The position numbers and the translations under genes were made by a program. Below, piece after piece: positions 10,780 through 23,260 of a stretch of DNA of 64,000 nucleotides (the stretch's first letter is position 1; every line of letters starts with the position of its first letter). The stretch is from an uncultured Gemmatimonadales bacterium (lineage in GTDB: Bacteria; Gemmatimonadota; Gemmatimonadetes; Gemmatimonadales; GWC2-71-9), in assembly GCA_963779755.1 (NCBI GenBank), contig CAVZZO010000001.1:288001-352000 (forward strand), given 5' to 3'. The notes under the pieces are model-generated. The model saw only the letters and a program-made list of their open reading frames with translations. It had not been told where the DNA came from and did no database searches.

Positions 10780-11625
10780 ATGAACGGCTCGCTCTTCCCC
10801 CGGCCGACGCCATGGGTGACCAGGCTGATCGCCGCAAACGTGGTGATGCAGCTGCTGCTGGCCACCGTGTTTACGGCGCCCGGTGTGCTGGACGGGCTGC
10901 AGTTCGCTCCCGGCTCCGCCCTGACGCAGCCCTGGACGTTCGTGACCTACATGTTCGTTCATGCCGGCCTGCTCCACCTCGCCGGAAACATGCTGGCGCT
11001 GTATTTCTTCGGTACGCCGGTCGAGAGCCGCATGGGCGGCGGGGCCTTCGTGTTCTATTACCTGCTCTGCGGGGTAGGCGCGGCGGTATTCTCCCTCGCC
11101 CTTTCGGGCATCTGGCACGTCAGCCCCTTCCTGGGCGCCTCGGGCGCGGTCCTGGGCGTGGCGCTCGCCTTCGCCATCTACTGGCCCGATGCAGAAGTCT
11201 ACATCTTCCCCATCCCCTTCCCGATCCGGGCCAAGACCCTGGTGGCGGTGCTGGCGCTGGCCTCGGCGTTCTTCGGACTGGTTCTGCGGAACACCGAAGC
11301 GGGGCACATCGCGCACCTGGCCCACCTGGGCGGCATCATCTTCGGCTATCTCTACTTCCGCTTCCACGCCCTGGCCCAGCGGGCTCCGGCGGCCTCGCCG
11401 CGCCAGGTGGAGCACGTGGTCATGGTCCAGTCGCCCGCGCGCGACGCCGAGCGGGCGCCCGCCAACCAGATCCATCGGCCAGAACCGAACGACGGTGAGC
11501 TGCTGTCGGCCGAGCTGGACCGGGTGCTGGACAAGATCAGCGAACGCGGCCTGGGCGGCTTGACGCCCGAAGAGCGCCGCTTCCTGGACGAGATGGCCCG
11601 GCGAAAGCGGCGCGGCCACTCCTGA
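10780..11625 (+). CDS. Rhomboid family intramembrane serine protease with C-terminal soluble domain
   Basis: HLAGNM, GASG, AHLAHLGG; tail ELDRVLDKISERGLGGLTPEE. Confidence 0.92.
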   Translation: MNGSLFPRPTPWVTRLIAANVVMQLLLATVFTAPGVLDGLQFAPGSALTQPWTFVTYMFVHAGLLHLAGNMLALYFFGTPVESRMGGGAFVFYYLLCGVGAAVFSLALSGIWHVSPFLGASGAVLGVALAFAIYWPDAEVYIFPIPFPIRAKTLVAVLALASAFFGLVLRNTEAGHIAHLAHLGGIIFGYLYFRFHALAQRAPAASPRQVEHVVMVQSPARDAERAPANQIHRPEPNDGELLSAELDRVLDKISERGLGGLTPEERRFLDEMARRKRRGHS

Positions 11626-11675
11626 TCTCCGCTTTCCCGCTTGCGCCTGGTGCGGCCCGGTGAATATTTGGCCGC

Positions 11676-12620
11676 GTGCTGATCAATCTCCTGCCGGCAT
11701 TCCTCTCCGTTCTCGACGCCGCCGACCCTGCCGCGGCCTACCGTCAATACCTCGATAATCACGCGCCGGTCCTGCGCGCCTACTGGCACAACTACGTGAT
11801 GGACCCGGACAGCCAGCCCGCGGGAGACCTGATACGCCAGACGATCGAGGCCGACCGGTCGGATCTCTGGGCGCTCATCGCATCGAGAGATATCCCGGCA
11901 CTGGCTGAAGACGCCCTGGCGCGGGCCCAGGAGACCCTCGGCATGGACCGGCCGGTCGACTGCTACCTCATGGTCGGCATGGGAGCGGCCAATGCGGGCG
12001 AGCTGGTGGTGGCAGGACAGGGTGCGCTCTTCATCGCACTGGAGCACTTCACCGGCCGGGCCAACCCCGAGACCTTCGGCCTGGGGCTCTCTCCAGAGCT
12101 GATCCCGCTCTGGATCGCTCACGAGTGCGCTCATCTCGTGCGCTACACCTCAGCCGAAAGCCGGAGCCCGCTGCGCGAGCTGATTGCCGCCATGGGCGGC
12201 TATTACGACTACTGGGAGACGGGGAGCCGCGCCTGTCTGCGCGAGCTGCTGCTCAACGAGGGCCTGGCGGTACACGCCAGCCAGGCCGTGTGCCCGGGCC
12301 TGCCGGCGCCGGAGTACTTCGGTTACGGGCGGCGGCAATATCATCGCCTGCGCGAAATGGAAGCGTTCCTCCTCCGGACCGCTGAACCGGAGCTGGACCG
12401 GGCCGCTCTGGGACTGAGACTGCGCTATCTCTCCGGGGGGATGAGCTCGCAGGCCCGGCTGGTAGGGGGGCGGGTGCTGCCGGAGCGCTCGGGCTATTAC
12501 CTGGGCTACCGCATGGCGGAGGCGCTGGTGGCCGAGCGCGGCGTCCCGGCGGCGCTGCGGGCGGAGACGAATGAGTTCCAGAGGGCACAGGGGGTGATCG
12601 AAGACCCGCAGAGCGCCTGA
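11676..12620 (+). CDS. Putative Zn-dependent peptidase (gluzincin, DUF2268-like)
   Basis: HECAH, downstream NEGLA, and GYYLGY motifs. Confidence 0.65.
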   Translation: MLINLLPAFLSVLDAADPAAAYRQYLDNHAPVLRAYWHNYVMDPDSQPAGDLIRQTIEADRSDLWALIASRDIPALAEDALARAQETLGMDRPVDCYLMVGMGAANAGELVVAGQGALFIALEHFTGRANPETFGLGLSPELIPLWIAHECAHLVRYTSAESRSPLRELIAAMGGYYDYWETGSRACLRELLLNEGLAVHASQAVCPGLPAPEYFGYGRRQYHRLREMEAFLLRTAEPELDRAALGLRLRYLSGGMSSQARLVGGRVLPERSGYYLGYRMAEALVAERGVPAALRAETNEFQRAQGVIEDPQSA

Positions 12621-12648
12621 GAGATCTTCCCGCCGAGGCTTCGGTTGC

Positions 12649-13233
12649 TCACGGGCCGATCTCGAAGACATCGGCGTGCGTCCACCACCGGCTTTCGGGA
12701 AATCTCCTTCCCAACTCCTTCCAGTAGCGCCGCAGATAGTCCAGGTCCGCCTTGTCCCGGTAATACCCGGCGACCCCCGCCCAGTAGAGCGCCTCGGCAC
12801 TGACCGGCGCCGGCGGCTCCAGATCGGCGACCGCCCGGAAACGCTCGTGGGCCTCGGCGTTGCAGCGTCGCAGCAGTTCCACCTTCCCCAGCGCCACCTG
12901 CAGCTCGGCCAGGAAATCGCGCGGAGGCTGGTAGCCCAGGAACCGCCGGACCTCCTGTTCCCGATGATCCAGCACCACGAACCCGGGAGACCAGAGGACC
13001 CGATAACGGCGTAGCACGGGCAGCACGGCCGGGTCGCGATCGGCCAGGCTCAGCGAGACGGGCACAACCTCCCGTGAGAGGAACCGCCGGACTGCATCGT
13101 CAGGATACGTCACGGTATCCATCGCCCGGCAACCCATTCACCCGGGTGCCGTAAGGGCGATGACCATGGGGCGTTCGTCGCGCACCGCCAGCTCCCGCGC
13201 GCTCTCGAGCCGTGAATGCCAGGGGATCGTCAT
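12649..13233 (-). CDS. Candidate selenoprotein: thioredoxin-like UxxC domain + TPR-like tail (194 aa with UGA read as Sec32)
   Basis: ATG 13233 with GGAGG RBS gives MTIPWHSRLESARELAVRDERPMVIALTAPG-(TGA 13138-13140)-MGCRAMDTVTYPD, in frame with ORF 12649..13137. Confidence 0.8.
13086..13130 (-). promoter_or_regulatory. Bacterial SECIS-like hairpin
   Basis: GGATAC-CGTGAC-GTATCC stem-loop starting 18 nt after the UGA; lower stem GCCGGGC/GTCCGGC. Confidence 0.65.
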
Positions 13234-13269
13234 GGTCCGTCCTCCCTCCCGTCTTTCTCCCGCCCTTCT

Positions 13270-14592
13270 CTACTTCCCCACACAGAAGCTCGAAAACAAC
13301 CGGTCCAGCACCTGCTCGATATCTACGGTGCCGATCAGCGCGGCCAGATGCTCGGTTGCCTCGCGCACCTGATGGGCGGCGAGCACGGCGTCCCCACCCG
13401 GCTCCAGATGCGGCGCGGCGTGGTCCAGTGCCTGAGCGGCCCGTTCCAGGCCGACCCGGTGCCGCTCCCGGGTGAGCACCGGCTCGAGATCCAGATACTG
13501 CCCCGGTTCGGCGAACAGCAGCTCCACGCAGCGCCGCCGCAGCCGGTCCAGACCGTTCCCGCTCACCACGGAGACGCCGAGCTCGCCGTCCGGAACGGCG
13601 GCGAGGTCCGTCTTGGTCCGCACCAGCAGCGTCCGCGGGCCCAGCAACGCCCTCTCCGCCTCCTCGGGAGCGCGCCCGCTCTCGACGCAGAGCAGGACCA
13701 GGTCGGCGCCACCCAGAAAGCGGCGGCTCATGGCCACCCCCATCCGGTCTACTTCCTCGCTGAACTCCGCCAGCCCGGCGGTATCCACCAGCCGGACCGG
13801 CCAGCCGGAGAAATCGGTGTCACTCTCCACGGCGTCGCGCGTGGTGCCCGGCGTGGCGGACACCAGCACCCGGTCGCTCCCCAGCAGGGCGTTGAACAGC
13901 GAGGACTTGCCGGCATTGGGCCGGCCGGCGATCACCACGACGGCGCCTTCCCGTACCCGCTGGCCCGCCGGAGCGGTCCGCAACAGCCCGGCAACGCTCC
14001 CGCGGACCTCCCGCCAGGCCGCTCGCAGGCGATCGGCGGAGACCGGCCCGTCGTCCTCTTCGGGGAAATCCACGTCGTAGCTGAGGAGTGCCTGCAACTC
14101 CACCAGTTTCAGCCGCAACTCCTCCAGGCGCCGCGAGAGTCCTCCGTCGAGCTGGTGCAGGGCCAGCCTGGCCTGGGCGGGCGCGCCGGCATCGATCAGA
14201 TCCCCCACCGCCTCGGCCTGCACCAGGTCCAGCTTGCCGTTGAGAACCGCGCGGCGGGTGAACTCGCCCGGGGCGGCGGCCCGGGCACCGGCGGCCTGGA
14301 GTGCGGCCAGCACGGCTGCCGGCGCGACCGCTCCCCCATGGCAGATCAGCTCCACCATGGGCTCGCCGGTATAGCTCGCCGGGGCCCGGTAGGCCAGATA
14401 GATCCCCCGGTCGATCGCCTGGCCGGCCGGGGTGCGGAAACCGGCCAGCCGGGCCGTGCGCGGCGGGTCGGGGGAGAACCCCTCGATGACCCGCGCGGCG
14501 ACGCCGAAGGCGTCGGCGCCGGAGAGGCGCACGACCGCAAGCGCAGACCGCCCCGGCGGGGTTGCCAGGGCGGTAATCGGGTCGGAGAGCAT
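13270..14592 (-). CDS. mnmE: tRNA modification GTPase MnmE
   Basis: DPITALATPPG, GEFTRRA, GRPNAGKSSL, GTTRD, DTAG, C-terminal FCVGK. Confidence 0.97.
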   Translation of the reverse strand: MLSDPITALATPPGRSALAVVRLSGADAFGVAARVIEGFSPDPPRTARLAGFRTPAGQAIDRGIYLAYRAPASYTGEPMVELICHGGAVAPAAVLAALQAAGARAAAPGEFTRRAVLNGKLDLVQAEAVGDLIDAGAPAQARLALHQLDGGLSRRLEELRLKLVELQALLSYDVDFPEEDDGPVSADRLRAAWREVRGSVAGLLRTAPAGQRVREGAVVVIAGRPNAGKSSLFNALLGSDRVLVSATPGTTRDAVESDTDFSGWPVRLVDTAGLAEFSEEVDRMGVAMSRRFLGGADLVLLCVESGRAPEEAERALLGPRTLLVRTKTDLAAVPDGELGVSVVSGNGLDRLRRRCVELLFAEPGQYLDLEPVLTRERHRVGLERAAQALDHAAPHLEPGGDAVLAAHQVREATEHLAALIGTVDIEQVLDRLFSSFCVGK

Positions 14593-14602
14593 GGGTGGGC
14601 CT

Positions 14603-16264
14603 CTACCCCTTCGGGTTCGGCGGCTTGGGTGGCTGCTTCCGCAGCCGTTCCTGGGAGATCCACCACTGCTGGGGGATGCTCACGAGGTTGCTGACCGAAT
14701 AATACAGGTTGAGTCCCGACGCGAAGTTGGCGAACAGCACGGTCATGACGACCGGCATCGCGTAGAGCATGATCTTGGTCTGCGGGTTGGGCTGCATGCC
14801 GCGCTGGGCGATCTTGTTCAGCACGTACATGGAGACGCCCATGATGACCGGGATGATGTAGTACGGATCCCGGCCCGACAGATCGTGCAGCCAGAGGAAA
14901 GGCGTGCCGCGCAGCTCGATGGTGGAGTCGAAGACGAAGAACAGCGCGAAGAGCACCGGGAGCGGGATGAACAGCGGCAGGCATCCCCCCAGCGGATTCA
15001 CGTTGTGTTCCTTGTACAGCTTGAACATCTCCTGCTGCAGCTTCTGCGGATTCTCCTTGTATTTGTCCTGGATCGCCTTCAGTTCGGGCTGGATGGCCTG
15101 CATTGCCATGCTGGAACGCATGGCCTTCTGGTTGAGGGGCCAGAGGACGACCCGCACCACGATGCCGAAGATGATCAGCACGATGCCGTAGGCGATGTGC
15201 AGATGCTGGTGCATCCAGACCAGCGTCCAGCGAACCGCCAGCGCCACCGGACGGATGACCGTCCGGAACCCGGGCCAGCCGTAGGGGTTCACATCGTCGA
15301 AGTCGTGACCGATCTGGCCCAGCCGGGAATACTCCATCGGCCCCGCATAGGCGCTGTAATGGAACGCGCCGGCGGGCCCGATCGGCATGCTGAGCTCGAC
15401 ATCGGCCTTGGAAGGCTGCTTGCCGGCGTTGGGCGCGGGGGTGGCCGTGACGCCGGTGATCCGCGGCTGGGTGCTGTCCAGCGCGAAGATGGCGGTGACG
15501 AAGTACTTGGACTTCACCGCGACCCATTCGAACGGCCCGTCCAGGGTCTTTATTTCCCCGGCTTTGAGCTTGGAAAACGGCGTGGCCTGGGTGCCGCTGG
15601 CCTTGGTCACCACCGCGAGCGAGCGATGCAGCTGGGAGGAGTCCGCCTCGGTGTTCCGGATGCCGGGCCCGAGGCCGATCAGCAGGACGCCGCCGTTGGG
15701 GCCCAGGCCATGTACGGTGCCTTCGACATCGAAGAGGTAGCGGTCGGGCAGGAAACGGTAGGTCAGCTCGGCCGAGACGCCCTGGCGGGAGGCGGAGAGC
15801 CGCAGGGTGGCCGGCGCGGTGACGTTGAGCTGCGTCGTGGACGGCGTAAAGGTCCATCGGTCCAGCCGCAGCGTGTCCTTCCCCACCAGCAGCTTGAGCC
15901 CGAGGAGATCGCTGTCGGGGTGCAGCAACTGCACCGCCGAATCGGCCCGCCCCGGGGCCATGGAGCGGAACTGGGGCAGCACGGCACGGATCAGGCGCCC
16001 GCCCAGCGTGCTCACGTCGTACTGGTAGAGCTGGCTGCTGGCGTGGACCGTGTCGGCCGGAACGGTATCGGGCGCGCCCGGCGTGGAGACCGGAGCCGGC
16101 GCACTGACCTGCGGAGCCGGGACAGCGACCGGGACCGTCGCATTGGTGTCCGGAGCCGCCGCAGCCGGCGGCCGGACCGGACGCGACGTGGGCTTGAGCA
16201 GGAAGGTCGGTACGATCGCGATGAGCATCATCAACACGATCGCCCAGATAATACGACGGTCCAT
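14603..16264 (-). CDS. yidC: Membrane protein insertase YidC
   Basis: WVAVKSKYF, YAGP, LWPL, QPELKAIQ, NPLGGCLP, DPYY, GLNLYY. Confidence 0.97.
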   Translation of the reverse strand: MDRRIIWAIVLMMLIAIVPTFLLKPTSRPVRPPAAAAPDTNATVPVAVPAPQVSAPAPVSTPGAPDTVPADTVHASSQLYQYDVSTLGGRLIRAVLPQFRSMAPGRADSAVQLLHPDSDLLGLKLLVGKDTLRLDRWTFTPSTTQLNVTAPATLRLSASRQGVSAELTYRFLPDRYLFDVEGTVHGLGPNGGVLLIGLGPGIRNTEADSSQLHRSLAVVTKASGTQATPFSKLKAGEIKTLDGPFEWVAVKSKYFVTAIFALDSTQPRITGVTATPAPNAGKQPSKADVELSMPIGPAGAFHYSAYAGPMEYSRLGQIGHDFDDVNPYGWPGFRTVIRPVALAVRWTLVWMHQHLHIAYGIVLIIFGIVVRVVLWPLNQKAMRSSMAMQAIQPELKAIQDKYKENPQKLQQEMFKLYKEHNVNPLGGCLPLFIPLPVLFALFFVFDSTIELRGTPFLWLHDLSGRDPYYIIPVIMGVSMYVLNKIAQRGMQPNPQTKIMLYAMPVVMTVLFANFASGLNLYYSVSNLVSIPQQWWISQERLRKQPPKPPNPKG

Positions 16265-22762: not shown

Positions 22763-22844
22763 GGCCGGACGCCGTGAGATCGCCGGGGAAAGTTACCGGG
22801 CGGCCCGGTGGGAGCAACCCGGGCCGCCGGTATGAGGGGGAAAC

Positions 22845-23260
22845 GGAGGGCAGGGCCGTAAGCCGAGTTCTGTTCCTCCGGGCAGGAGCCCGAAAGGATG
22901 GTCATCTCTCTGGGATGGCTGTCGCCAGCCACCTCTAGCAGCCTACCCGCGGCTGCCGCCAGGCTCGCGCCTGGCGGGGGTCGGTGCGGGCCGCACCTCG
23001 CCGCCTATTTGGCCTTGCTCCGGCTGGGGGTTACCCTGCCACCGCTGTTGCCAGCGGTGCGGTGGGCTCTTACCCCACCTTTTCACCCTTACCCCGCCCC
23101 CGTGCCTCGCGGCCCGGGTTAGAGGCGGTATGTTTTCTGTGGCCCTTTCCGTCGCCTGATCGGCGCCCAGGCGTTACCTGGCAGCCTTGCCCTGTGGAGC
23201 TCGGACTTTCCTCGAGCCCCCGCCGAAGCGGGGGCCCGCGACCATCGCACCCTGCCTTCC
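22845..23260 (-). ncRNA. rnpB: RNase P RNA (type A)
   Basis: Minus strand GAGGAAAGTCCGAGCTCC, GCCACAGAAAACATACCGCC, GGGTGAAAAGGTGGGGTAAGAGCCCACC, ACAGAACTCGGCTTAC; P1 GGAAGGCAGGG/CCCTGCCCTCC. Confidence 0.97.

Follow-up and report, generated by a model that had tools for sequence, protein, structure and literature searches.

A thioredoxin-fold gene with a predicted selenocysteine codon and a TPR-like tail in an uncultured Gemmatimonadales bacterium

The window analysed here, a stretch of 64,000 nucleotides from an uncultured Gemmatimonadales bacterium, raises the question of whether a TGA codon directly upstream of an annotated reading frame ends translation or is decoded as selenocysteine (Sec). 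The longest open reading frame under translation table 11 lies on the minus strand at 12649-13137, encodes 162 amino acids and begins MGCRAMDTVTYP. Between this frame and an ATG at 13233, which is 36 nt past the stop codon of the preceding mnmE gene, the sole in-frame stop is the TGA at 13140-13138. Translation from the ATG through this codon to the terminator at 12651-12649, also a TGA, yields a minus-strand product of 194 amino acids, MTIPWHSRLESARELAVRDERPMVIALTAPG-U-MGC-RAMDTVTYP..., in which 31 sense codons precede the first TGA. A sequence-only reading of the locus had proposed an in-frame ATG 32 codons upstream of the called frame together with a ribosome-binding site, and both were found, the ATG at 13233-13231 and GGGAGGGAGG ahead of it. 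The single TGA had been assigned to the first position of a CxxC-type motif followed by a cis-Pro-like WSP, and the minus strand indeed encodes ...LTAPG-U-MG-C-RAMDTVTYP... and, further on, W81-S82-P83. It had also been expected that standard pipelines would shorten the gene; the window's own protein in the collection (P0002) is 157 amino acids long. The coordinates of the features are collected in Table 1.

Table 1. Position of the predicted selenoprotein gene and its parts in the window
Feature	Coordinates	Strand	Evidence
Full coding sequence, 194 aa, predicted Sec at codon 32	12652..13233	-	Translation; domain matches and confident fold only with the N-terminal 31 residues
Shine-Dalgarno-like GGGAGGGAGG, 7-nt spacer to ATG 13233	13241..13250	-	Sequence
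UGA predicted to be read as Sec (U32), first residue of the U-M-G-C redox motif	13138..13140	-	Aligned TGA/Cys codons
Cys35, putative resolving Cys of UxxC	13129..13131	-	Invariant column in 54-sequence alignment A2; within helix 33-42
Predicted SECIS hairpin GGAUAC-CGUGAC-GUAUCC	13103..13120	-	17 nt after UGA; conserved in subfamily A
Thioredoxin-fold domain, about residues 1-122, DsbD-gamma/DsbH/Thioredoxin_7-like	12868..13233	-	Pfam, PDB profile search, Foldseek, VIA
cis-Pro candidate P83	12987-12985	-	No variation in either protein alignment
C-terminal helical TPR-like domain, about residues 123-194	12652..12867	-	Model helices, PDB profile search, fold comparison

When the 31 upstream codons were restored, the protein passed the Pfam cut-off of 27 for both Thioredoxin_2 (PF13098, 38.3 bits) and Thioredoxin_7 (PF13899, 32.2 bits), which bears out the thioredoxin-like N terminus proposed upstream of the TGA. 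An AlphaFold model calculated from a 54-sequence alignment (A2) reached a pLDDT of 96.6 and a pTM of 0.92. In this model strand 23-28, encoded upstream of the UGA, sits in the thioredoxin sheet, U32 is at the start of helix 33-42, and P83 precedes strand 84-88. G34, C35 and P83 are invariant in A2, and position 32 is at least 90% conserved. The two features by which a thioredoxin fold was recognised are both present: a CxxC-type motif where the active-site helix begins, and a conserved Pro ahead of strand 3. The 194-residue protein is probably cytoplasmic, because it has no N-terminal extension able to hold a signal peptide.

These data bear on one alternative, that the UGA terminates a 31-codon leader and that a 'TPR protein' of 157-162 amino acids is made separately from Met33 or Met38. 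ATG codons do follow directly after the UGA (M33 and M38), and gene callers choose them. Nevertheless, conservation in frame extends over the 31 upstream residues, which supply strand 1 and helix 1 of the thioredoxin fold, and a protein without them would miss the active-site nucleophile and part of the sheet. The Cys-form homologues, moreover, are single full-length proteins. We consider separate translation very unlikely as the main use of the locus; termination by-products may form if Sec insertion is inefficient.

Homologous DNA loci were collected from 301 genomes of the phylum, 17 of which had a match, and from the GTDB species collection, from which the best 80 of 110 relatives were taken, giving 98 loci. 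The codon could be aligned in 94 of these, as TGA in 89 and as a Cys codon in 5. The other four are partial or decayed copies that do not align at the Sec codon. Removal of six duplicates left 88 distinct loci, and in this set, which includes the best 80 of 110 GTDB relatives, the aligned codon is TGA in 83 and TGC or TGT in 5. The Cys/TGA pairing that had been anticipated at codon 32 is therefore present among the homologues. Two of the 83 TGA loci (L027 and L028) come from genomes flagged as unpublished; L028 is the same as the public L067 over the stretch compared, and the conclusions are independent of both. A start codon could be placed 26-46 codons upstream of the TGA or Cys codon in all 91 complete loci, often preceded by a purine-rich, GGAGG-like motif resembling a ribosome-binding site, and the total length of the homologous proteins is 187-211 amino acids. 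According to record titles, Sec forms occur in Gemmatimonadota, Acidobacteriota (Thermoanaerobaculia, Vicinamibacteria and Bryobacteraceae), Myxococcota, Bacillota, Planctomycetota and Ca. Eisenbacteria, and the Cys forms belong to Chitinophagaceae (three), Longimicrobiaceae (one) and Gemmatimonadales (one).

Two relatives have decayed. L040 (G153) is reduced to a stretch that matches residues 122-190, with mnmE and DUF2268 intact on either side, and L039 (G213) carries an in-frame TAG and lacks a recognisable N-terminal part. Such decay, together with a single in-frame stop inside an otherwise intact domain, is what could be cited for a pseudogene in the window, with the TGA at 13140-13138 as a sequencing or assembly error or a recent nonsense mutation. 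Against this, 82 further distinct loci, spread over several phyla, have TGA at the corresponding codon, and a conserved hairpin follows it. A public DNA contig of 174 nt from one soil-metagenome run spans 13003-13176, including the TGA, with one differing letter whose position is not given. No difference is listed at the TGA itself, which answers the proposed read check in favour of the codon, although this is weak evidence, as the contig may derive from the source sample. We give the pseudogene explanation almost no weight. The search of public runs listed no RNA data sets containing the gene.

The Sec forms seen in protein databases are stored in one of two ways: cut short at the N terminus under names such as 'hypothetical' or 'tetratricopeptide repeat' protein, or with Trp in place of Sec. 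A word-indexed search returned 66 relatives, most of them 150-165 amino acids long with about 78-81% query coverage and starting at MDTVTYP or MGC; four full-length relatives from this search carry CLGC, CKGC, CSGC or CGGS at the site. Among the best 150 cluster representatives of an exhaustive search, 87 start just after position 32, as truncated calls would. Position 32 is spanned with Cys in 49 and with Ser in three, W, V and L occur there once each, and eight are other fragments. A profile search found 2,459 database clusters of the family combining a thioredoxin fold with a TPR-like tail (Trx+TPR) at E <= 1e-10. None of the source names among the matches listed contains the word 'selenoprotein'. 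Trp at the Sec position (for example AAPMWSGC; P0218-P0220) was seen in 9 of 105 newly listed matches and in 1 of the 150 representatives, and these entries look like the work of gene callers reading TGA as Trp.

Entries with W at position 32 could also be taken at face value: a near-cognate tRNA or an altered genetic code would then give Trp or Cys at the UGA. TGA is, however, a normal stop in these organisms, because the gene itself and many of its homologues end on it. True full-length homologues have Cys, never a conserved Trp, at this position, a complete Sec machinery is present (see below), and a switch of code by gene callers is the best explanation for the W entries. Read-through of this kind is exceedingly improbable. 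The Trx+TPR family reveals a systematic annotation error in the databases, which would be put right across many genomes of soil bacteria by a family model that makes an exception for Sec.

In bacteria, SECIS elements lie just 3' of the UGA. The sequence-only reading had described a perfect hairpin here, and its geometry proved correct: the stem begins at the 18th nucleotide after the UGA (a 17-nt spacer) and G is the second loop base. Stem GGAUAC (13120-13115), loop CGUGAC (13114-13109) and stem GUAUCC (13108-13103) make up six base pairs and a six-nucleotide loop. A bacterial SECIS, as described in PMC1088965, is a stem-loop that directly follows the UGA on its 3' side and has G in a small apical loop; as far as that description goes, the window hairpin has this form, with its 6-bp stem and the loop CGUGAC 17 nt after the UGA. 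By itself, the hairpin carries little evidential weight. A perfect stem of at least 6 bp that begins 8-22 nt downstream and has G at one of the first two loop positions was found at 3.7% of random sites and likewise after 3.7% of the 48,571 TGA triplets on contig C1; because of this background rate the window hairpin was not relied on by itself. In a sequence encoding M-D-T-V-T-Y-P, the three synonymous choices that the hairpin requires would coincide in about 2.8% of cases, as the product of their codon fractions in the genome (GAT 0.32, ACG 0.29, TAT 0.30). The minimum-free-energy fold of the 76-nt region has a z-score of -0.74, which is not informative, and an Rfam scan of 12600-13300 at E up to 10 gave nothing on the hairpin and only a chance sRNA match. 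The significance of the predicted element comes from comparison with homologues.

The Sec loci fall into two subfamilies. Subfamily A (20 distinct loci including that of the window) has the pattern PGU(L/M/G/Y)GC followed by M(D/G/R)xVTYP and, by record titles, is found in Gemmatimonadota, Acidobacteriota, Planctomycetota and Bacillota. The window hairpin recurs at the same offset in all 20 loci, with 119 of 120 stem cells paired; the lone exception is a C-A mismatch in L026, a close relative. Pairs 22:37 and 23:36 are changed on both sides in L051 (GCGUGC/GUACGC), where these changes track the amino-acid changes D to R and P to A, so that both double-sided changes stem from one sequence. At pair 25:34, A-U alternates with G-U. 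Only 4 of 500 shuffles matched the observed pairing, and when the partners were slid by 1-3 columns 25-60% of cells paired. The loop is CGUGAC in 19 of the 20 loci; in Escherichia coli the fdhF SECIS loop uses a G-U pair of bases for SelB contact. Nucleotide conservation in subfamily A is in part due to conservation of the peptide MD(T/A)VTYP. No hairpin of this type is present in any of the five Cys forms, which use GUGACCUAC-type codons, but the Cys forms differ in MD(T/A)VTYP residues too, so the missing hairpin is not a pure synonymous-site contrast. The proposed covariation check thus came out positive, with compensatory change in Sec forms and the hairpin missing from Cys forms.

Subfamily B (63 distinct loci) shares about 30% identity with the window protein and has the pattern AAPxUxGCARL(D/E)AEVYP. 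Its hairpin, CUCGGC-UGGAN-GCCGAG, begins 10 nt after the UGA, and all six pairs are formed in 61 of the 63 loci. Among the 69 rows, third codon positions 15, 18 and 21 of the stem never vary, and positions 27 and 30 are identical in 68. These frozen positions include a rare GCU Ala codon, and third positions just outside the stem vary among three or four bases. One locus, L079, shows a compensated change from a G-C to an A-U pair. Conservation of this sort in the two subfamilies is the signature that would be expected of functional bacterial SECIS elements. The UGA stands at one and the same codon in both, and the hairpins differ in sequence and distance, from the subfamily B form at +10 nt (L027-L121) to GGAURC-CGUGAC-GUAUCC at +17 nt in subfamily A (L025-L064). 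It seems that the SECIS was rebuilt within the coding sequence between the subfamilies, and two SECIS designs on one protein scaffold offer a natural pair for studying how such elements move within coding sequence.

The genome (4.23 Mb in four contigs, 68.5% G+C) was searched for the Sec machinery, and selA, selB, selC and selD, which the sequence-only reading had named for this check, were all found. SelA (526 bits), SelB (325 bits) and SelD (378 bits) score above their curated cut-offs, the selD gene with one in-frame TGA, and a tRNA-Sec with anticodon TCA is present. The tRNA-Sec gene was found twice, with identical scores, in each case close to a contig end (G000 C3:5596-5689, plus strand, and C4:2521-2614, minus strand); the two may be a repeat or an assembly overlap and not two real copies. 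Another selenoprotein gene in this genome is selD itself (G000 C1:921618-922538, minus strand; locus L010), with the motif SHGAG-U-ACK and a hairpin, GCUCGGC-GCC-GCCGAGC, that begins 8 nt after its UGA. Just upstream of selD is a tandem GGACGGCAGGAC-type repeat, which would encode (GRQDGRTA)n if translated.

Presence of selA was compared with the form of the codon in other genomes. All five tested genomes with a TGA form have selA above cut-off. Four of the five Cys-form genomes have no selA above cut-off, and in the fifth selA is split over two frames. This last genome is that of the Cys-form locus L056, where selA is found at G304 C10:19554-20880 as two consecutive pieces in different frames that cover model positions 2-244 and 243-454. 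The arrangement suggests that selA has suffered a frameshift here, in a genome where the family member is a Cys form.

The proposal of a Sec-encoding thioredoxin-fold gene is supported by the Sec/Cys pairing, the conserved hairpin and the presence of selA, selB, selC and selD, and nothing that the sequence-only reading had named as counter-evidence was found. On these comparisons of sequence, the gene is very probably a genuine Sec-encoding gene with a functional SECIS, and Sec insertion is predicted. Translation would start at ATG 13233 and proceed through one gene, 13233-12652 on the minus strand. The mRNA hairpin at 13120-13103 would recruit the SelB-GTP-Sec-tRNA(Sec) complex to the UGA at 13140-13138, and Sec would be inserted there instead of termination. 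We infer that this insertion really takes place at U32. Sec32, at the N terminus of the active-site helix, would be the attacking nucleophile and Cys35 would resolve it by forming a selenenylsulfide, and the TPR-like helical domain would most likely dock a substrate or partner protein. Fold and motif suggest that the protein acts as a thiol/selenol-disulfide oxidoreductase. Our confidence in a specific redox or client-docking role is lower than that in the Sec-encoding gene.

The C-terminal part of the protein had been described as a TPR-like tail. This description was upheld by the PDB profile search and by the fold, but not by Pfam, where TPR_16 reached 15.3 bits against a cut-off of 32.7. 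In the model, strand 84-88 is followed by helices 104-121, 125-136, 145-160, 164-177 and 182-187. The profile search matched the tail to the TPR domain of YbgF (2xev, E 1.9e-9) and to CpoB (6g5s, E 7.9e-8). It superimposed on BamD (5efr) with Z 12.0 and rmsd 2.9 over 90 residues (103-192), and on FLU-TPR (4yvq) with Z 10.2; between helical domains, matches with Z values in this range can arise from a common arrangement. Precomputed Pfam matches to TPR exist for some relatives, and a natural Cys homologue, P0068, falls in generic 'thioredoxin family' clusters of the ESM Atlas, some with TPR. The PDB comparison found no solved chain with both domains in the same arrangement.

UxxC thioredoxin-fold selenoproteins are the largest known class, and in this respect the window protein is of an already known and fairly ordinary kind. 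The conserved domain cd02953 denotes DsbD-gamma. The window protein resembles a family of UxxC selenoproteins named 'Thiol:disulfide interchange protein' or 'Trx-like 2', for which Table 1 of PMC13188914 gives PF13098 and the representative WP_011366075.1, and Table 2 of PMC2398784 gives cd02953. Like that family as described there, it has UxxC, passes PF13098 and contains a DsbD-gamma-like domain; it also has a TPR-like tail, and no signal peptide or membrane part. In the parts of the two papers compared, the family descriptions have no TPR tail, and the word 'TPR' has no occurrence in PMC13188914. The window protein probably belongs to this class, the comparison being with the family by its description.

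Among proteins of known structure, the thioredoxin domain is close to the C-terminal domain of DsbD (2fwe, 1uc7, 1vrs) and to DsbH (2ju5), which belong to the same thioredoxin-fold subtype with CxxC at the helix N terminus. DsbD was matched by the PDB profile search (E 1.9e-16) and by Foldseek (2fwe, E 4e-7), with a TM score of 0.71 on the target. VIA Z scores were 12.6-13.4, the highest for 2ju5 (Z 13.4, rmsd 2.0 over 117 residues), and a Thermus thioredoxin is also near. Unlike the window protein, the DsbD domain and DsbH are periplasmic, use Cys and have no TPR tail; identity is 18-22%, and the window protein does not reach the DsbD NCBIfam model (27.4 bits against a cut-off of 330).

The chaperedoxin CnoX/YbbN (3qou, 3qdn) shares the order of parts, being cytoplasmic with an N-terminal thioredoxin fold followed by a C-terminal TPR-type helical domain. 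The TPR tail of CnoX is a model for bringing client proteins to a redox site, and by analogy the tail of the window protein may be a docking module. YbbN, however, has about 285 amino acids, and superposition of the whole chain on YbbN/CnoX was poor (Foldseek TMq 0.38-0.40, rmsd 11-12 Å). With 3qdn only the thioredoxin domain aligns well (Z 9.8 over residues 2-116). The matches of the searches made include no Sec form of CnoX.

Weak local similarity round the active site was found to the NCBIfam models of three thioredoxin-like selenoproteins, VPGUxxT (NF041382/NF041383), Trx7/PDZ (NF041199) and TsoB (NF045694). The PGU motif is shared with VPGUxxT, but the window motif is UxxC and not UxxT, and the domain partners differ from those of all three. 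The window protein and five relatives scored far below the cut-offs of NF041383, NF041382, NF041199 and NF045694 (for example 36.9 against 805, and 11.6-33.9 against 275), and none of the NCBIfam models attained its cut-off with the window protein or with these relatives. No description of a Trx+TPR selenoprotein was found in the open-access literature searched, and the Trx+TPR family as such has a fair chance of being uncatalogued. The fuller proposal is of an uncatalogued cytoplasmic Trx+TPR 'seleno-chaperedoxin' family of about 190 amino acids that is Sec-dominant (83 of 88 species-level loci, Gemmatimonadota to Eisenbacteria), is missing from NCBIfam and from the 2026 compendium, and has had its SECIS rebuilt at 10 versus 17 nt with the UGA fixed; we advance this only tentatively and consider it rather doubtful as a whole. 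Knowledge of Sec decoding is unchanged by the window selenoprotein. It does extend the selenoproteomes of Gemmatimonadota and Acidobacteriota, which have been little studied, by a Sec-dominant redox protein.

The neighbourhood of the gene was compared across the family. Upstream on the same strand are mnmE and yidC (window 13270-16264). The plus strand carries a rhomboid protease gene and one for a predicted Zn protease of DUF2268 (window 10780-12620), both of which converge with the selenoprotein gene. In close Gemmatimonadales orthologues the gene always lies between mnmE and the DUF2268 gene, in either orientation, and only there are the flanks kept. When 101 ORFs flanking 53 loci of the wider family were scanned with Pfam, no recurrent partner gene emerged; the matches were scattered (ABC1 kinase, CtaG, PhzF and others), and no pathway clue came from a conserved neighbour in this wider set. 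In one clade (L025, L026 and L048) the gene is inverted relative to the window and L042-L047, and is co-directional with DUF2268 instead of mnmE, which points to local inversion of a single gene. Elsewhere in the window, a bacterial RNase P RNA of class A was detected on the minus strand at 22843-23258 (263.8 bits).
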